A stretch of DNA of 63,006 nucleotides, filler included, from Basidiobolus ranarum (Eukaryota), in NCBI GenBank assembly GCA_040143965.1. It is 39 parts of 39 records of this genome, joined end to end, with 100 filler letters (N's around TTAATTAATTAA, not from the genome) between each part and the next. Parts side by side here need not be neighbours in the genome. Positions count along the whole stretch, not along the records: positions 43,751 to 45,265 come from JASJQH010011826.1; positions 45,366 to 46,879 come from JASJQH010011827.1; positions 46,980 to 48,493 come from JASJQH010011828.1; 36 more parts are not named here. One strand, given 5' to 3'. The position numbers and the translations under genes are program-made. The notes beneath the pieces are model-generated. The model did no database searches. It saw only the letters and a list, made by a program, of their open reading frames with translations, and had not been told where the DNA came from. Every line of letters begins with the position of its first letter. Within the stretch, counting starts at the first letter, position 1. Positions 1,627 to 58,170 of the stretch are shown piece by piece.

Positions 1627-2339
1627 ATTAGACACTTAAGTTTTATTGAATTGAATATGTCCTATTTATAGTTTACTATGAAATAGGACTTTTGGACATG
1701 CTTAGATAATAACAAACATGCCTGTTAAGCATGGGTGAAAATTTGAGGTGATTTGGAGAAGTTTTGAGAAAATACTGAAAATTGGTAAAAGTGCTCTAAT
1801 TGATATTTCTATCAATTAGAGCAATAAACACATGTTTTTGAATGACAGAAATGAGTACTAAATAATCAGAATATGAATAAACTAACTACTAAATAATGAG
1901 TTGCTATTTACCAAATTTTAACAGTGATTTACTATCCACTTTGGAAGGAATTATCATACAAGAAAACAGCTCAAGCAATGATGAAGCATTGATCAATTTA
2001 TCAAATGTGTTCATTTCTAGCAATAGTGCAAGTGAAGAGATTGTAATCCCCCCAAATATGTAGCAAATTGATAGTTGACCAAAGTTCAACAGAAACATCA
2101 TCAAGACTATCAACTTCCAAAATGGCTATTTTGCCAACAATTGAACAACCAGCCACAGAAAATATTGATATAAGAATGACACAAAGAAATCTCAGGTTGA
2201 GCACCATAATGATTTGTATGCAATCAAAAGTAAAAGCTACAAAGTTGCTATACAGGCCATGACAAGCAATAACATCAAAATATTGCAATTAATGAAGCAT
2301 TCTGAAGCAACTTGTAATAGTTAGAGAGTCACTCAACAT

Positions 2340-2946
2340 CCTAACACAAATTTGAGAATGGTTATTATAGGAGAACCCTCACAATTTTAATTGCTTTTGG
2401 GTTAACCTTTACTTACCATTATAAGTTCATCAAGTTGGATTTGATTTTAATCAATCTTTTTGGTGTCAGGAGTGAAATTTCAAGTTCTTGCACAGTAGTT
2501 GAACATGGTTGGCTACAATCTCAGAAGACTAGGGATCAACACATGTGTAAAAAACATAATTCAAATTTTACACATTTACCACTTGAAACCTAATTTGTCA
2601 CCTTAAAGATCCCTAGTTTCATTGATGTATTCTCCTGAATATTTTTAAAGAGTTCTTCAAACACAAGACTTAACTCTTATCCAACATGTGTGTGTATCAA
2701 TATCTCCATCAAAGCTCATTATTTTATTAACATTGCTGAAGCAACAATCTTCCAGCTGTCTGGCAGATACCCTGTAAGGTTTTGCCACTCAGGATTAAGT
2801 TCTTCCCAGATGTATGCATGATCAACAGCAGACTGGACATCAGGTTGAATGTTCCTCTTGTGTAGCCACTTTCTGTGTGCTTGAACTGTGTTTTTCCCCT
2901 CATACTTGTGCAAATACTCCTCATCACTGTTACTATTTTCATACAT
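2340..2946 (-). mobile_element. CCCTA-type DNA transposon end plus degenerate ORF of unknown function
   Basis: Terminus CCTAACACAAATTTGAG at 2340; same end and ORF in reverse orientation at 3327-3911 and 61496-61880. Confidence 0.6.
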
Positions 2947-3907
2947 CCCTCTATTGTGACACTACAGAGGGTGCTTTGCAGTGTTAAGCACTTTGACTAT
3001 TTTTGTATGTCCTTGTAGTGTGACACTACTGAGGGTGCTCTGCAGTGTTTGTGCAGCTTTTTGCATGCCTTTAGGTTTTAGGCTAATTTCAACACTTTGA
3101 AAAGTACCAGTTGAGATTGGAGAGCTGTGAGTTTCATTTGCTGAGGGGTTGGNNNNNNNNNNNNNNNNNNNNNNNNNNNNNNNNNNNNNNNNNNNNTTAA
3201 TTAATTAANNNNNNNNNNNNNNNNNNNNNNNNNNNNNNNNNNNNNNNNNNNNAAAAACCCACACTAAATCACAAAGCACCCTCAGTAGTGTCATACTACA
3301 AGGACGTACAAAAATAGTCAAAGTGCTTGAGGAGTATTTTCAAAAGTAAGCAGGGAAAAATTTGGTGCAAGTATGCAGAAAGTGGCTTCAGAAGAAGAAC
3401 ATTCAACTTGACATTCAGTCTGGTGTTGACCATGCAGATATCTTGGAAGAACTTAATACAGAGTGGCACAATATTGCAGGGTACCTGCCAGATAGCTGGA
3501 AGAATGTTGATTCAGCAACATTTATACAATGGTAGGCTTTGATGGAGATATTGATACAAACTTGTGTTGGGTATGAGCTAAACCTGGGATATGAAGTACT
3601 CTATAAAAATATTCAGGCAATTATATCAAATAGACTAGGGATTTCAAAGGTGACAAATGAGCATTCAAGTGGTAATGGATTAAAATATGAGTTATGTTTT
3701 TTGCACATGTGTAGATCCATAGTCCTCTGAGATTTTAGCTAATCATTTGCAACTATTTTGTGAGATCTTGAAATTCCACTCCTGAAACTGAAAAAATTGA
3801 TTAAAATCAAATCTAACTTGATAATTTTGTGATGGTAAGTAAACGGTCTACCCCAAATGGATTGAAATTGTGATGGTTTTCCTATAATAACAATCCTCAA
3901 ATTTCTG

Positions 3908-12996: not shown

Positions 12997-13743
12997 TATA
13001 TATTCAAGTGGAATCTTGAAAAGATTTCTGCCTGATCAGTATTGGCAACATTGGGAGTTGTTTGTGGATATTGTTAATATATTCTTATGGCCTCAACTCA
13101 CATTGGCAGATCTCAGGCTGATACAGCAACTGTGCAAGATTTTTAATTGAATGTGAAAAACTGTATTACAGGTTTAAAGAAGGTAGACTGAATCTATGCT
13201 GGGATCCAATATATTCCCTGCTGCATCTTTCACAATTCCTAGAGATTATAGGCCCTTGGTATAAATTCTGGGAATTCCCAATGGAGTGCACCTGCAGTGA
13301 AATGATGCTCCATGTGAAATTGTCAGTATTACCATATGCTAATCTGATTAACAATGTATCAGAAGAATCAGTGATAGATGTGATGTAATGGGTTAAGGAG
13401 ACTCCAGAGTATATTAACCTTCCAACAAAGGGCTCCTTTCCAAGTGCTTATGGGTTTTTGCATTGTTTGAGAAAAATAGCAGCAAGAAAACCCATTCCAT
13501 GGACACAGAGTAAGTACCTCTATAATTTAGACTAATCTGTTGGTGTAATAATTTGACAATATTTCTAGGAAAAGCTACAAGACACACTTCTTGGTGAGAT
13601 AGATCAAGATATGCAGTATTGTTGTTTTAGCCATTGGGTAATCTATTTGAGCAATGACACATCTACTAGTGGCATGACATTTGTTGACTGCAAGTCACAG
13701 ATATTTTGGCTGAATTCTTTATGGAAATATGTCAAAATCCAAG
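12997..13743 (+). mobile_element. CACTA transposase C-terminal region (DUF4218-like), degenerate
   Basis: SLLHLSQ.LEIIGPW..FWEFPME motif; homologous to 58850-59225. Confidence 0.8.
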
Positions 13744-14278
13744 TGTCATGGTTCTGGTCTTGGCATACTGATCCACTGCAAATAGAACTCCTCTATTATT
13801 AGATTATGACATCATGTCTGCTGTGCCATCCCTTCTTGGCAATCTTGTGTTAGTTCATCCAGATTACCTTTTATAGAAGGCATGTTCTTTGGAACATTCC
13901 ATGAAACCTAACTAATCATGTCATCCCACACATAGTGTATTTCTGCCAAGACCTTCCATGAAAGGTCACCTGATCATCCTTACATCATCCTTACATCTTC
14001 CCTCTTTGTATTGGTTCTTGTAGTCCTCAAGACCCAACTCTTGAGCTTGCCACAGTATATTCCCTATTCAGTATATTATGTTTCACCTTGCAATAACTAT
14101 ATAAGCCCCATGTATTCCTTGATCAGACCTCAGTCTAAACAATGCCAGTTATCAATAAAGATTCTTGCCACAGTATCTTCCTTGTCCAGTCTTGTCTTGT
14201 GGTTTACACCCAAGTATTCTCCTGCCTTGTAGCCTCTTGTTGTTGTTCCCAGTCCTTGTCAAGTTCCTTATTGTGACA
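13744..14278 (+). repeat. Gypsy-type LTR family D (5' LTR followed by PBS and leader)
   Basis: TGTCA...TGACA termini; homologous to 35945-36460 and 59226-59769. Confidence 0.85.
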
Positions 14279-14619
14279 GTTTGATCAGAATACTTATACT
14301 TGCCTGTAGACTTCTCTCCATCCCTGTTCTCCAACCTTGAAACCCCCCAAGGTTGCCTGTTTTCTTATTCCCCATCTTTCCCAAGCTTCCCTGCTAAGGC
14401 AAAGGTACCTTCAACCTTTGGATAATTGCTCTAAGTGCATCCTTGTCAAGACACTACTGGTTGAGTTTACAGTTGTTTTTGATCAAAGAAGCTTTAGTAC
14501 TTGATCAAGATCAAAGGACNNNNNNNNNNNNNNNNNNNNNNNNNNNNNNNNNNNNNNNNNNNNTTAATTAATTAANNNNNNNNNNNNNNNNNNNNNNNNN
14601 NNNNNNNNNNNNNNNNNNN

Positions 14620-43965: not shown

Positions 43966-45264
43966 CTAATGCTCCTCCAATGCTCCAGGAATGTCTTTGA
44001 GGTCCACATCAATGAGGTCTTGAAGAGCTCCACCAATGATCTGGATTCCTTCTCTGAGTTGCTCCTCGCTGATCACGAGTGGTGGTGCTAAACGAATGAT
44101 ATTCTCGTGAGTAGGCTTGGCCAAGAGCCCTCTCTCCTTCAAGAGCAGACACAAGTGCCAGGCAGTCTTGGGAGCTGACTTCTCCTGATCAATCACGATG
44201 GCATTCAACAAACCGCGACCACGAACGCATGAGACAATGGGGGAGTTCAAGGCACGAAGTTCTTTACGGAAAATCTTACCAAGACGATCAGCACGCTCGA
44301 CAAGTCCTTCCTCCTTGACGACCTCCAATGCTGCCATGGCAACCGCACAACCAAGAGGGTTTCCACCATAGGTAGAACCGTGCTCCCCAGGGTTGATACA
44401 CAACATCACTTCCTTATCAGCCAACACTGCTGACACGGGGTAGACGCCACCAGAAAGCGCCTTACCGAGCAATACCATGTCTGGGCGGACGTTTTCATGA
44501 TCAATAGCAAGCATAGCACCAGTACGAGCAATACCGGTTTGGATCTCATCGGCAATGAAGAGAATGTTGTGCTTCTTGCAAAGGTCATAGCACTTACGGA
44601 GATATCCCTCATCTGGAACCATGATACCAGCTTCACCCTGGATGGGCTCGACAAGGAATGCGGCGATGTTCTCGGGTTGAGCCTCGACGGCTGCCTCCAG
44701 GTCTTCATAGTTGTTGTAGCGGATCTCACGTCCAGTCTTCTGACAGAATGGTCCGACATTAGGAAGGTATGGTCCAAAGTCGTTACGAGCATCAGGATCG
44801 GTGGACATGGAGATGATACCACAAGTACGACCGTGGAAGTTGTTGCTGCATGAGAGAACGATAGCTTGATTGGTAGGAATTCCCTTCTTCATGTATCCCC
44901 ACTTACGAGCAAGCTTGATGGCGGTCTCAACTGCTTCAGCTCCGGTGTTCATAGGGAGAACCATGTCATATCCAAAGTACTCAGTGACATACTTGGCATA
45001 TTCACCAAACACATCGTTGTAGAAGGCGCGTGAGCTGAGGCACACCTTTTGGGCTTGGTCCACCAAAGCCTTGATGATCTTAGGGTGACTGTGGCCTTGG
45101 TTGACTGCAGAGTAGGCTGAAAGGAAATCATAGTAACGCTTACCCTCGGGATCCCAAACGTACACCCCTTCAGCCTTGGAGAAGACCACGGGAAGTGGGT
45201 GATAGTTATGGGCACTGTGTTTGTGCTCAAGGTCAATAATTTGTTGGGAAGTGGAGATGGTCAT
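43966..45264 (-). CDS. CAR2: Ornithine aminotransferase (class III PLP enzyme), intronless, 432 aa
   Basis: [67 protein letters not shown]. Confidence 0.98.
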
Positions 45265-45367
45265 ANNNNNNNNNNNNNNNNNNNNNNNNNNNNNNNNNNN
45301 NNNNNNNNNTTAATTAATTAANNNNNNNNNNNNNNNNNNNNNNNNNNNNNNNNNNNNNNNNNNNNTC

Positions 45368-46600
45368 TTATCTGACAAGTTACCCAAATGCGTTGATCTC
45401 GAAATCACAAGCGGCAAATGGAACTCCGAAGAAATTAACAACATGGTTAAAATCTATACCATGCTTGGCTCTTCTGCAACCCGGAAAAGACTCTTTGGCG
45501 ATGTAAGATTAAAACTTTTCGACGGAAGTTTTGTCCATAAACTAAATTCCAAATCCGGTATCGTTGCCCTGCAAAATGGTGTCTATGATCTCCACGAAGG
45601 TATAGTTCGCGAACCTGTCCCTTCTGATTATGCCTCTATTCGAGCCCCAACCCTCCTCCTCGATCCTATCCCTCAACATAAGTTATCTAAATTAATGGGC
45701 GTCTTAGAAAAAATATTCCCCGAACCAGAACTCCTAGACTTTTTTATCATGACCTGTGCATCGTTCTTAGAAGGTTACAATTCCAACAAAATCTTTTACA
45801 TCTGGTGGGGCAAAGGTAACAACGCCAAAACTGCTATACAAACATTGGTCGCCAAAACTTTCGGTAACTATTGTGCCACTCTTCCAACTACTCTTATTAC
45901 CCGAAGCAGAGGCTCGTCTTCTAACGCAACCCCTGATATGTGTCATCTTGAAGGCAAACTTGTTATGTTCTTGCAAGAACCAAACTCCGAAGAAAAAATT
46001 AAAGGTGGTGTCGTTAAAGAACTCACCGGAAACGATAATATTTATATCAGAGAACTTTACAAACAACCTCGATCCATTAAGATCAAAGGTAAGATGATTC
46101 TCGTCTGTAATAATATCCTAGATATTCCAGACATAGATGCCGCACTTAAACGTAGAACCATTGTCATCCCTTTCTTAAGTACTTTCTTGCCCAAACGAGA
46201 ATTTGACTCTCTAGAAAACCAAAATAAAAAATATACATATTTGGTTGAACCTAATGCAGAAAAAATATTAGAAGATTCATGCGACGAATTTATGTCGTTG
46301 CTATTGCGCGAATATCCCAGATATCTTAAGTGTGGCCTTCAAGTACCTAAGATTATTTCTGATACAATAGATACATATCTTGTTGCTCACAATTATCCAG
46401 TGGTGTTTAAACGCAAATACTTCAAGATCCAACCCGGTACTAATATGGAAGTACGTGAAATTTATGGCCAGTTTAAATCTTGGTTCAAAGATGTGCATCC
46501 AAGTCATAACATTCCAACATTAGAAAAATTCGCGAACGCTCTTAACTTAGAATGGGATGGAGTACTAGAAGATATATTTGTTTCTTATGATGAAATGTAA
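45368..46600 (+). CDS. D5-like primase-helicase (SF3 helicase part), NCLDV-like, 5'-truncated
   Basis: NGVYDL (D5_N), Walker A GKGNNAKT, ATPD, Walker B FLQEP, KELTGND, motif C LVCNN, Arg finger ALKRR; frame is open to the contig edge. Confidence 0.92.
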   Translation, partial: LSDKLPKCVDLEITSGKWNSEEINNMVKIYTMLGSSATRKRLFGDVRLKLFDGSFVHKLNSKSGIVALQNGVYDLHEGIVREPVPSDYASIRAPTLLLDPIPQHKLSKLMGVLEKIFPEPELLDFFIMTCASFLEGYNSNKIFYIWWGKGNNAKTAIQTLVAKTFGNYCATLPTTLITRSRGSSSNATPDMCHLEGKLVMFLQEPNSEEKIKGGVVKELTGNDNIYIRELYKQPRSIKIKGKMILVCNNILDIPDIDAALKRRTIVIPFLSTFLPKREFDSLENQNKKYTYLVEPNAEKILEDSCDEFMSLLLREYPRYLKCGLQVPKIISDTIDTYLVAHNYPVVFKRKYFKIQPGTNMEVREIYGQFKSWFKDVHPSHNIPTLEKFANALNLEWDGVLEDIFVSYDEM

Positions 46601-47325
46601 TTTTGTTTTTTAAAATTTCTTATTCTTGTAAATATGCAAGTTGTTATTTAACTCTATACATAACCTTTTTTCTTTACCTTAACCCAATTTGGATCTTGGT
46701 TCGAAACTTTTCTCCTCTAGAAACTTTTTTTTCTAAATTTATATTTTTGCGAACCAGATTAAAACTTTGTTGATTATATCTTTCTAGTTTAAACTTTCAC
46801 ATCTGGAACTAATTTCTTTTTAAAAACCCAAACTCTTGTTGTTTCGAAAACTTTTTTAATATCTTACGAAATTATTTTTNNNNNNNNNNNNNNNNNNNNN
46901 NNNNNNNNNNNNNNNNNNNNNNNTTAATTAATTAANNNNNNNNNNNNNNNNNNNNNNNNNNNNNNNNNNNNNNNNNNNNTATCTTTATCTTTATACACCT
47001 AACTATTTCATATATCACATATAAGTTAGTTAACATTACTTAGTCAAATATCACTTAGCTGAAAATCGGAACATATATTATATATATATGAGAATAATGT
47101 GGGAATTAGCAATTTCATATTGGAAATTTCAAACTTGTCCAAATTGCCCCAAAGATAGCTCATTTTACTCCCACAGATGTTATAAACACAACCCCAGTGT
47201 TAGTTTTGTGTATTTCCACCAAGAAGTATATATGCTTTATTTCTGGACCATAAACAATTATCTCACAAAGCTATTCACAACTCCACTTTTCTAATGTTCT
47301 TGCAAACAGCCCATATTTTCCCAAT

Positions 47326-48385
47326 ACATCACAGCAAAGATATAAGTATCCTGTTATAGAACTTCTGTCTTCAATATCTCTTCCCCAATATGCATCTGAG
47401 CATCCTATCAGATCAAAGTTTGAACCAGAATATGTGTATTTTAAACATGGATGCCCAATACCTTTCAAATATCTGAAAATCCACTTAACTGCAATGATTT
47501 GATCAGATCCATAACTTTGAAGAAATTGGCACATAACTCCCACCAAAAATGCAATATCTGGCCATGTTCCAACCATGATATGCATCAAACTACTAAGCAT
47601 TGATTGATAAGGAAATATCTGGCTTTCATTTGAATTCAAAATGTCTGATTTGAGCCATTTTTGGTCCAGTTAAGATTTGTCTCCATTGAGGTAGATACTG
47701 GATTACATTCTTCCATTTTAAACTTCTTTAGTATATCCAGGATATACTTGGACTGGTTTAAAGGTATTGTCTTGGTAGTTCTATCAATATTAATTTGTAT
47801 TCCAAGATAGTACTTCAGTTCACCAAGATCAGTCACATTGAATATGCCAGATAAGCTGGATTAGGTATTCTCTAAAGTCTTCAAGTCATTGATTGCTATA
47901 ATAAGGTTATCTACATTTAAGGCTAATAAAACTGGGTTTGTCTTATCTGGCCTGAAGTAGATACCATAGTCAGCATTGCTCTTGTGGAATTTGAGTGTAT
48001 CCAAAAAAGAATCTATCTTGCTATTCCAAGCTCTTGGATACAGTTTAAGCTGTAGAGTGTTTTCCAGAGTCTGCAAGCCTTTTTAGGTTTTTGTGGGTCC
48101 ATAAATCTATCTGGCTGGCCCTTATAGATCTCCTCAGCAAGCTCACCATTCAAAAAAGCAGCTTTAACATCCATTTGATGTATAATAAAATGATATTTAG
48201 CTGAAATTGCTAAAATCAATCTGATTGAATTAAACTTTGCTACAGGAGCAAAAGTGTCTATCTAATCTATTCCTGGTTTTTGGGAATATCCTTTGGCTAA
48301 TAGTCTAGCCTTGTACCTTTCTATATTGCCATCAGAGTTGTATTTAACTTTAAACACCTGTTGGCAGCCAATTGATTTTCTTTCC
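47326..48385 (-). mobile_element. Copia reverse transcriptase, degenerate
   Basis: YKARL.AKG, HQMDVKAAFLNG, LALNVDNL, TDLGELKYYLGIQI. Confidence 0.92.
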
Positions 48386-48723
48386 TAATGTGTAATTAAT
48401 CAAAATTTCATTCAATTTGGCCCAAAATGACTCAATTCAAAACCAAGAGTTCCCTTATCAATCCATGGTGGGTTGTTTAGTATCTACATTGGCNNNNNNN
48501 NNNNNNNNNNNNNNNNNNNNNNNNNNNNNNNNNNNNNTTAATTAATTAANNNNNNNNNNNNNNNNNNNNNNNNNNNNNNNNNNNNNNNNNNNNGTGTTAG
48601 TTTTCTGTATTTCCACCAAAAAGTATAAATGTTAAATTTCTGGACAATCAACAATTATCTCACAAAGCTATTCACAACTCCACTTTTCTAAAGTTCCTCC
48701 AAACAGACCATATTTTCCCAATA

Positions 48724-56907: not shown

Positions 56908-57456
56908 AGTTTGATGTTGCAGCTAATAGAAGCTGATGAAATCCACAGGTGAATAGCAACTTTTTATACCGAAATACAATGAAACAGTTCGTTACACTAG
57001 ATCTTACGAATATTAAGTGATCTGATTTGCAACCATGGTCAAGGAGCCTCGGCCTTGATATGAACCAAGTGTAACTGGCATTTGAGAATGAATTCTCAGC
57101 AAAAAAACTATTGATTAGATTGAATGATAGATCGCAATACTAACCTGGTTAGGCCGGTCGTGGGTTTATTATTCAAGTAACATTATACTACAAATATACA
57201 AGATTTTATTGAATGTGGTAGCCACAGATGATTACAAATGCTCTCTATAAATCACCGTTTAAAGCGCTCCAAAGGTAGGACTAGCACCGGTGTCAAAAGA
57301 CGCCTCAAATAGGGCCACATTTCAGAAGAATTCTCATCGTAAAATTTGTTTGATTTGTCCAAGGTAGCACGGATCTGAACTTCGAAAATATATAAAGCCT
57401 TCAATATATGAAGCAGTGAAGTACAACTACCAGCTTGCTCAGATATCTAACAAATA

Positions 57457-58170
57457 ATGTCTTCGTCTATCGAAATAAAACGCCAGGCCTACGGTAAAGC
57501 TAAGGTCAGAGTCACTAAAGCTATCCGTCATACCGCCGAGTGGAATGACATTGTTGAACTTACCTGCCAAGTTCTCCTTGAGGGTGACTTTGAGACGGCT
57601 TACACCAAGGCTGACAACAGCATGGTAGTCCCAACTGACACAGTTAGAAACACTTGTTATATCATTGCCAAGAAATCCGACCATGTTCAAACCATTGAGC
57701 GTTACGGTTACGAACTTGGCAAACATTTCGTTGACAGATACCCTCATGTCACCCACGCCAATGTCCACATTGTTCAATCCCGTTGGGCAAGAATCAACGT
57801 CAATGGTGAGCCTCACCCTCACTCCTTCTATCGCGATGGATCCGAAACCAGACAAACCTGGTTGACTGTCACTGCCAACAATGTCAGTATTAAATCGGGT
57901 TTGGAAGGCCTGCTTGTGTTGAAGACTACTGGTTCATCCTTTACCAACTTCCATCTCTGTGAGAACACCACCCTTCAAGATGCTGATGATCGCATATTCT
58001 CTACCACTGTCAAGGCTCACTACAACATCAACACTTCCACTGGAGTTGAAAACATTCCGTTCGATCGTATCTTTGATGGAGTTCGCAAGACCACCTTGGA
58101 TGTATTTGCTCACGATGACTCTGCCTCAGTCCAAGCCACCATGTACCGTATGGCTGAGTTGATCTTGAAG
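57457..58170 (+). CDS. Urate oxidase (uricase), copy 2, 3'-truncated
   Basis: YGKAKVRV, VVPTDTVRNT, HPHSF, VLKTTGSSF, DRIFST, SASVQATMY. Confidence 0.97.

Follow-up and report, generated by a model that had tools for sequence, protein, structure and literature searches.

A giant-virus-type D5 helicase fragment in a Basidiobolus ranarum genome assembly: a well-preserved and probably endogenous viral remnant

Introduction

The study of giant-virus DNA in fungi has only recently begun, and DNA viruses of non-zoosporic fungi are still an open question. The closest described system is that of Gong, Zhang & Han 2020 (Virus Evol 6:veaa008, PMC7017919), who describe endogenous 'fundsalphaviruses' in 14 fungi of 6 phyla, with Basidiobolus meristosporus, B. 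heterosporus and Mortierella elongata among the hosts. These elements were found through PolB, lie on long fungal contigs and often carry stops and frameshifts. The reported gene set around PolB comprises D5, a D6/D11-like SNF2 helicase, a SAM methyltransferase, RPB2, RPB5 and N- and C-terminal pieces of RPB1, and the PolB tree given there places the group near Pithovirus. In the literature naming Basidiobolus together with a giant virus, this paper alone proved relevant. Here we analyse a fragment of a D5-type superfamily 3 (SF3) helicase gene on one short contig of Basidiobolus ranarum (assembly GCA_040143965.1), which lies in a 63,006-nucleotide stretch of joined contigs (the window). A first-pass annotation of this DNA had stated that sequences derived from nucleocytoplasmic large DNA viruses (NCLDV, Nucleocytoviricota) occur in early-diverging fungi, and the two Basidiobolus species of Gong et al. 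bear this out. The same source makes the case less novel than was then assumed, D5 being included among the genes of those elements.

A second described system is the Mycodnaviridae (Myers et al., PLoS Biol 2026, PMC13533422). These are reported to be mostly viruses of zoosporic fungi that carry a major capsid protein (MCP) and group near Algavirales and Imitervirales. They resemble the present case in being giant-virus-derived DNA in early-diverging fungi and in having a D5-like helicase-primase among their hallmark genes; they differ in their mostly zoosporic hosts, Basidiobolus being non-zoosporic, and in the presence of the MCP. The same text reports that an hmmsearch of 40 non-zoosporic fungal genomes turned up no giant-virus capsid gene, and that among 2,543 Mycocosm genomes a non-zoosporic capsid gene occurred only in Dimargaris, a Zoopagomycota species.

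Results

Open frame and helicase motifs

The window consists of 39 contigs of 1512-1526 bp, ordered by falling length and joined by spacers of the form N44-TTAATTAATTAA-N44 (78 runs of exactly 44 N, paired around the 12-mer TTAATTAATTAA). The helicase contig, number 29, is bounded by such artificial spacers and therefore has no physical linkage to anything beside it. Since the contigs are merely concatenated, findings that use neighbour genes across a spacer are unsafe. The features of the contig are listed below.

45366-46879, no strand: piece 29, one complete assembly contig of 1514 bp, between artificial spacers at 45266-45365 and 46880-46979
45368-46600, plus strand: 3' part of a D5-type SF3 helicase gene, 410 codons and TAA, 5' end open (from frame and homology)
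45533-45649, plus strand: remnant of D5_N (collar), C-terminal part only (PF08706, E 0.008, 16.9 bits against a cut-off of 22.4)
45809-45832, plus strand: Walker A, GKGNNAKT, residues 148-155, with Ala153 where Gly is usual before Lys
45815-46156, plus strand: SF3 ATPase core, DUF5906 (PF19263, 33.2 bits against a cut-off of 27.6, E 9e-8)
45959-45982, plus strand: Walker B, LVMFLQEP, with Q203, E204 and P205 invariant
46100-46114, plus strand: motif C / sensor-1, LVCNN, with N248 invariant
46148-46156, plus strand: KRR, in which the invariant R263 is the putative arginine finger (role taken from SF3 helicases generally)
46157-46597, plus strand: C-terminal helical/winged domain of D5 type, collinear with relatives to their C-termini
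46601-46879, no strand: AT-rich non-coding 3' flank of 279 bp (GC 24%, 4 CpG against 3.6 expected)

The stop-free frame runs from 45368 to 46597, is closed by TAA at 46598-46600 and opens at the first in-frame base of the contig. At this composition a frame of 410 codons has a chance probability of ~3e-12. The alignments with P0081 and P0082, the two nearest relatives, start at translated residues 5 and 2, matching residues 316 and 300 of the respective relative. As the frame is open to the contig start and homology sets in this early, the gene is cut by the end of the contig. About 300 N-terminal residues are absent from the contig, and the ATG at 45443, the first in frame, is not the true start. 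The C-terminus is collinear with relatives to within 3 residues, large indels are absent and no intron is needed. The first-pass annotation had reported about 410 codons without stop or intron, and the frame and its collinearity agree with this; the interval that it gave as the feature, 45366-46879, is the whole 1514-bp contig and has to be replaced by a gene that ends at 46600 and is cut at its 5' end.

From its sequence the contig protein is identified as a D5-type SF3 helicase made up of part of D5_N, the ATPase core and the C-terminal domain. All SF3 motifs that had been annotated were located again (Walker A, Walker B, motif C and KRR), as was the quoted D5 pattern (LPTTLITRSR...QEP...KELTGND). 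The D5_N match, which is below the cut-off here, was above it in 7/8 family relatives scanned with PF08706. The ATPase core aligns with residues 584-827 of C962R of African swine fever virus (ASFV), E 5e-12. In an alignment of 16 family sequences (A1), G148, G150, N152 and K154 of Walker A are invariant and N151 and A153 reach at least 90% conservation; 15 of the 16 carry N-N-A-K-[ST], while the counterpart in C962R is GGGCNGKT. The NAKT in Walker A had thus been read correctly but is no oddity of this copy. We considered a lesion in Walker A and rejected it, as Ala153 is a trait of the family. In the 3' flank (46601-46879) every open reading frame (ORF) is shorter than 60 aa, and the sequence resembles neither host DNA nor a transposable element (TE).

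Relatives and structural matches

An exhaustive HMMER search of 1.84 billion representatives returned 24,333 proteins at E <=0.001 and 1,067 at E <=1e-30. Besides the contig's own annotated protein the nearest is P0081 (718 aa, 53% identity, E 2e-133), followed by P0082 (703 aa, 51% identity), both from Logan assemblies. The closest relatives overall have 45-53% identity (E 1e-100 to 1e-133), and beyond P0081 and P0082 there is a family of ~650-740-aa proteins at 33-47% identity. Members that could be named are fungal hypothetical proteins, from Ramaria rubella and from Linnemannia elongata (P0127), and a Stichococcus transcript. The last, P0096 (MMETSP/EukProt, Stichococcus sp. RCC1054, a green alga), is a complete protein of 680 aa of the same clade; its presence as a transcript shows that the lineage has at least one member with expression in cultured eukaryotic cells. 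Classical giant-virus D5 proteins stand further off, at ~27-34% identity; they have 840-1100 aa and the domains AEP_C962R, PriCT_2, D5_N and DUF5906. In the precomputed Pfam lists inteins and homing endonucleases interrupt several of these classical helicases (P0058, P0061, P0063 and others).

Phage and plasmid matches are numerous and distant. At E <=1e-3 there were 620 phage records and 266 plasmid records, all below 60% identity, the best listed being a Listeria phage (24.1%, E 2e-19) and a Tritonibacter plasmid (27.6%, E 3e-20). Best hits to phage or plasmid proteins, which would have spoken against the annotated viral origin, were looked for; what we found is 24-28% identity on that side and 45-53% in the eukaryotic-virus family.

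The PDB sequence search gave 3 distinct matching sequences, all of them ASFV C962R (best E 5e-12). The D5 protein of poxviruses is a helicase of the same type and serves as a comparison system; it is absent from the PDB sequence matches. An AlphaFold (AF2) model was made for P0081 from a 45-sequence alignment (predicted local distance difference test, pLDDT, 86.3) and used as a proxy for the contig protein, to which P0081 is 53% identical. In the part equivalent to the C-terminal helical/winged domain its pLDDT is ~87-98. The top Foldseek match of this predicted structure was full-length ASFV PrimPol (8iqi, E 1e-27), and against the chains of the hexamer form of ASFV PrimPol the template modelling (TM) score was 0.56-0.64. 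Sequence identity in the Foldseek alignments was 12-16%. ASFV C962R (PDB 8iqh/8iqi) is alike in its order of D5_N, SF3 ATPase and C-terminal domain, in the alignment of Walker A, Walker B and motif C, and probably, by analogy, in its action as a hexameric replicative helicase. It differs in this low identity, in having Gly where the contig Walker A has Ala, and in that the short family shows neither an AEP_C962R nor a PriCT_2 domain.

In BFVD the P0081 model matched giant-virus D5 proteins at ranks 1-13 wherever the entries are named (2 rows are nameless). Among these top ranks are Gaeavirus, Pithovirus LCDPAC01, Bodo saltans virus, Heterosigma akashiwo virus, a chloriridovirus, a cedratvirus, and Solivirus and Solumvirus, which we take to be pithovirus-like. 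Yellowstone Lake virophage 5 follows at rank 14, phages from rank 15 and mavirus at rank 46.

Phylogeny

For the trees each homologue was trimmed to the region matching the contig protein. A quick tree of 87 rows contained 64 family rows, 18 classical rows (every fifth of those of at least 840 aa) and 4 phage/bacterial rows; two exact duplicates of locus ORFs, fragments below 340 aa and one intein-bearing row were left out. A careful maximum-likelihood tree of 53 rows (34 family, 14 classical and 4 outgroup rows, the latter 3 phage and 1 bacterial) was computed under LG+C20+F+G4 with posterior mean site frequencies (PMSF), ultrafast bootstrap and the Shimodaira-Hasegawa-like approximate likelihood ratio test (SH-aLRT), two very long branches being dropped.

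In the careful tree the contig protein pairs with P0081 (99/95) and then with P0082 (100/99). The short family (35 rows) forms a single clade (100/99), which is nested among the classical AEP_C962R-bearing D5 rows and includes P0127 of Linnemannia (= Mortierella) elongata. The 4 phage/bacterial rows are split from the 49 giant-virus-type rows at 100/100. At 0.42 the terminal branch of the contig protein does not exceed the sister branches (0.60 and 0.44), and the quick tree agrees with the careful one. These trees support a Nucleocytoviricota affinity of the helicase, in line with the first-pass annotation. The phage or plasmid origin that had been left standing there is not upheld, the best listed E values being 2e-19 and 3e-20 and the phage and bacterial rows forming a separate clade at 100/100. 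The phylogeny by which that annotation had proposed to check its claim now covers giant-virus-type, phage and bacterial sequences, although its rows include no labelled Polinton-like sequences.

The short D5 lineage

The contig gene belongs to a distinct 'short D5' lineage of proteins of ~650-730 aa, in which Walker A reads GxGNNAK[ST] and an AEP primase domain cannot be recognised. Pfam found AEP_C962R or PriCT_2 in none of 8 short-family proteins, against 2/2 classical controls. When 44 family N-termini were compared with 40 classical ones by hhalign, only 82 columns aligned, at the start of D5_N (probability 95.9%, E 5e-9). No conserved acidic or His motif was found in 15 aligned family N-termini, and the region is missing in some subclades. 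A predicted fold of the family N-terminal region (A3, 15 sequences) had a mean pLDDT of 63.7, fell below 60 across the first ~90 residues and again at 111-140, and was too uncertain to search.

In one related locus (L082:17336-19588, plus strand) a second D5-like protein of 751 aa with Prim-Pol, D5_N and DUF5906 is encoded ~6 kb downstream of the short D5 gene. Primase and helicase roles may be divided between paralogues in this lineage. The earlier label of D5 primase-helicase holds as to the helicase; the primase half is off the contig, and no AEP domain is detectable in relatives, so that for the short D5 lineage 'primase-helicase' is a doubtful name. As the primase half lies outside the contig, this result does not bear on what is observed on the contig itself.

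Gene neighbourhood of relatives

Scanning with the family alignment A1 gave 80 IMG/VR loci and 80 metagenome loci; a scan of IMG/VR with a single protein had given no relative. The IMG/VR loci beyond L001-L003 are mostly named GVMAG, that is, giant-virus metagenome-assembled genomes. From these 160 loci 16 were chosen for context analysis on the grounds of 33-45% identity and at least 8.7 kb of sequence, with up to 10 kb visible on each side of the relative. Neighbours were clustered by blastp, and each cluster was named from Pfam matches of one representative, 40 ORFs being scanned in all.

The 16 loci are densely coding and have neighbours in common: UDG in 12, the C-terminal piece of RPB1 in 10, PolB in 9, RPB2 in 8, DUF5757 in 8, an mRNA capping enzyme/methyltransferase in 7, and an SNF2-type helicase and the N-terminal piece of RPB1 in 4 each. 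The others are XPG/FEN nucleases and unknowns. RPB5 was not identified in the 16 loci. Among the 40 scanned ORFs there was no match to capsid, A32, VLTF3 or integrase, a weak negative given the 10 kb at most that is visible on each side.

In one locus of the lineage an intein interrupts PolB (L083:13622-17119, minus strand; the Intein_splicing match is below its cut-off). HET (heterokaryon incompatibility) is a typically fungal domain, and in all three metagenome loci that fall in the Linnemannia elongata clade, L100 (8682-10463), L101 and L105, ORFs with HET domains immediately adjoin the viral UDG-D5-RPB2 block. Either the three are fungal chromosomes with integrated elements, or they are viral sequences that have captured HET domains.

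Composition and state of the copy

The observed/expected (o/e) CpG ratio of the helicase contig is 1.03. Across the window 29 of the 39 contigs have ratios of 0.00-0.20 and the other 10 of 0.56-1.03. The low-CpG contigs (for example 1627-3152, 12997-14519 and 46980-48493) are retrotransposon-like where readable; TE ORFs have CpG o/e 0.04-0.16, and in the ORFs of TE-like contigs the TpG+CpA excess is 1.27-1.45. This bimodal pattern suggests repeat-targeted cytosine methylation with deamination, or a process at CpG resembling repeat-induced point mutation (RIP). The helicase contig has clearly escaped the CpG removal that acts on repeats. CpG retention relative to TEs had been part of the first-pass argument, and that comparison stands; the same measure separates the contig only weakly from host unique DNA, gene-bearing or unique contigs having 0.56-0.88 and host non-TE non-coding DNA 0.58-0.88.

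The D5 ORF has GC 38.1%, GC at third codon positions (GC3) 35.4% and CpG o/e 1.00, and its 3' flank has CpG o/e 1.10 (4 CpG). In four host ORFs GC is 46-50% and CpG o/e 0.63-0.87. Codon-usage correlation was uninformative (r = 0.33 between D5 and host genes, 0.40 among host genes themselves).

Compared with 45 relatives, the contig protein keeps 27/27 invariant columns and 54/56 of those with at least 90% conservation, departing from the latter by one S-to-T and one T-to-I change. Of 3690 possible point substitutions in the ORF, 170 (4.6%) create a stop, so that under neutral drift a stop is expected with 50% probability by 1.2% divergence and with 95% by 5.3%, indels aside. Because the ORF is stop-free, all catalytic residues are kept and there is no CpG decay, the copy should be young or still under purifying selection.

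Other contigs of the window

An intronless ornithine aminotransferase (OAT) gene occupies 43966-45264 (minus strand) on contig 28. As a genomic neighbour of the helicase it was considered and rejected, since a spacer separates contigs 28 and 29. Its protein is 99% identical to a B. ranarum protein and 91% to one of B. meristosporus; sequence identity thus gives Basidiobolus, an early-diverging fungus, as the host genus of the assembly.

By blastn the helicase contig has no similarity to the other 38 contigs. No PolB was found on it or on those 38, and when the missing N-terminal half was sought across the window with 5 full-length relatives, only contig 29 matched, in the known part only.

Contig 36 carries a uricase gene fragment (57451-58170, plus strand). 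A second class-III aminotransferase fragment, distinct from the OAT of contig 28, lies on contig 6 (8490-8789, minus strand; Aminotran_3 E 7e-8, a short exon-like ORF). Long ORFs with GC 47-49% and no Pfam match occur on contig 7 (9752-11272, minus strand; 326 and 180 aa) and contig 27 (42137-42901, plus strand; 255 aa).

Discussion

The contig is in our judgement a fragment of a Nucleocytoviricota-derived element in the Basidiobolus genome assembly, most likely endogenous, and we hold this explanation to be probable though well short of secure. We grade it so because the published precedent consists of endogenous copies in two congeners, on long fungal contigs. So understood, the contig is a new, divergent and unusually well-preserved example of a viral remnant already described in the genus, neither a new kind nor the first. 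The likeness to the fundsalphaviruses lies in an NCLDV-like origin, in D5 as one of six shared genes and in Basidiobolus as a listed host genus. In addition, relatives of the contig protein lie in the same gene set, and one comes from Linnemannia (= Mortierella) elongata, itself a listed host. The difference is that here there is an intact helicase fragment on a 1.5-kb contig, with neither PolB nor host flank and with at most 53% identity to anything.

Several observations weigh against an endogenous element of that lineage. Assignment to the lineage of Gong et al. follows from gene content, host genus and the Linnemannia protein, and not from comparison with their sequences. No host DNA, TE or junction was found on the helicase contig, and when all 39 contigs were compared by blastx with 3946 ORFs of the 160 giant-virus-like loci, only contig 29 matched. 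Among 5.8 billion protein clusters none exceeds 53% identity, the 90% cluster of the contig protein has 1 member on 1 contig, and no annotated orthologue turned up in other Basidiobolus assemblies. The lack of anything above 53% identity in these collections, together with the single-member cluster, counts in particular against an old, fixed insertion. Finally, the D5 ORF differs in composition from host ORFs and thus shows no amelioration, a state that suits a free virus or a contaminant no less than a young insert.

On the favoured explanation, that of an endogenous element, the contig would carry the D5_N-SF3-helicase portion of a viral replicative helicase gene. Its relatives lie in a conserved replication/transcription block of UDG, D5, the RPB1 C-terminal piece, PolB, capping enzyme and SNF2 helicase, with RPB2 and the RPB1 N-terminal piece nearby. 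In the virus, by analogy with ASFV C962R and poxvirus D5, six copies of the protein would assemble into an SF3 ring, the ATP-driven motor of the viral replisome, and open viral DNA at the replication fork. ATP would be bound at the Walker A/B site, with an Arg of the neighbouring subunit acting as sensor; held together by the D5_N collar, the ring would move along single-stranded DNA and separate the strands of the duplex. In the fungus the copy would be part of an endogenous viral element, presumably integrated in the nuclear genome, that either has undergone less than ~5% neutral divergence since its viral service, and so is probably young, or is under selection. Nothing supports co-option by the fungus, and no host role is implied; the copy probably has no host function.

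The strongest competitor is a free or episomal giant-virus-like DNA virus or replicon of this Basidiobolus strain, co-sequenced with it, which we consider possible but distinctly less probable. It would account for an ORF that is fully intact with all conserved residues kept, for CpG o/e of 1.0-1.1 in ORF and flank with GC and GC3 below those of host genes, and for the lack of both a host flank and any copy of 90% identity or more in another assembly. Moreover, the AT-rich flank of 279 bp looks like the short spacers between genes on related viral contigs. Set against this, the contig is the single viral one among 39, a weak point because the window is a tiny sample of the assembly. The capsid search of Myers et al. 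2026 (PMC13533422) was negative in non-zoosporic fungi except Dimargaris, and the lineage described by Gong et al. is endogenous on long fungal contigs, with stops and frameshifts.

A bolder proposal, to which we give somewhat less credence, is that the contig is a piece of a live, replicating giant-virus-like replicon in a non-zoosporic fungus, a 'fundsalpha' virus or a capsid-less descendant of one. The AEP primase domain would have been lost from its replicative helicase, whose Walker A would be GxGNNAK[ST]. Because the lineage so far shows just a replication/transcription module, with no capsid gene in the 40 scanned neighbour ORFs and none reported by Myers et al. for non-zoosporic fungi except Dimargaris, such a replicon could spread without a classical giant-virus virion. 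If this were true, a large DNA element would be persisting in Basidiobolus.

Less likely again is a contaminant, that is, a giant-virus-like element of another eukaryote or of the environment with no relation to Basidiobolus. In favour of this, the contig is short and unlinked and differs from host genes in composition, and relatives occur in soil and freshwater metagenomes, in the Stichococcus transcriptome (P0096) and in unrelated fungi. We saw no sign of a foreign eukaryote in the other 9 CpG-retaining contigs, among which are those of the OAT (99% to B. ranarum) and the uricase, most of the nine being unidentified. Contamination is further opposed by the clade of the contig protein, P0081 and P0082, which is distinct from the alga and metagenome clades, and by the genus Basidiobolus being already known, from the published account cited above, to carry the lineage.

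We regard it as very improbable that the helicase belongs to a Polinton-like virus, virophage or other small eukaryotic DNA element. Such elements also carry D5-like SF3 helicases, two virophages (Yellowstone Lake virophage 5 and mavirus) stand among the structural matches at ranks 14 and 46, and the AEP_C962R domain that giant-virus D5 proteins typically have is missing from the short family. All 16 loci examined, however, hold giant-virus-type replication/transcription genes, each gene in 4-12 of them, and Polinton-like viruses and virophages are not known to have blocks of RNA polymerase, capping and PolB genes. The family is also nested inside classical giant-virus D5 in a tree built without labelled Polinton-like sequences, and the IMG/VR loci beyond the first three are mostly GVMAG.

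A bacterial phage or plasmid primase-helicase of P4 type (COG3378), acquired by contamination or horizontal transfer, hardly merits consideration: these proteins share the superfamily and the combination of D5_N with SF3, and their distant homology extends to the 620 phage and 266 plasmid records, but the rows listed have 22-28% identity (at best 24.1% and 27.6% among the matches listed, against 45-53% for the eukaryotic-virus family), and the 3 phage and 1 bacterial rows form a clade separated at 100/100 from the giant-virus-type rows.

A fragment of 1.5 kb alone changes nothing fundamental. The capsid result of Myers et al. leaves room for a lineage that persists in an unconventional form, of which such a fragment is no test. 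For the helicase family, short D5 proteins are now routinely labelled 'primase', and the domain result obtained here may help annotation and marker-gene trees. For the fungus, the contig adds a third Basidiobolus lineage to the carriers of this viral DNA. A fully intact copy, which many of the published ones are not, with no CpG decay in a genome whose repeats are stripped of almost all CpG, makes this strain a reasonable one in which to seek recent or ongoing infection.

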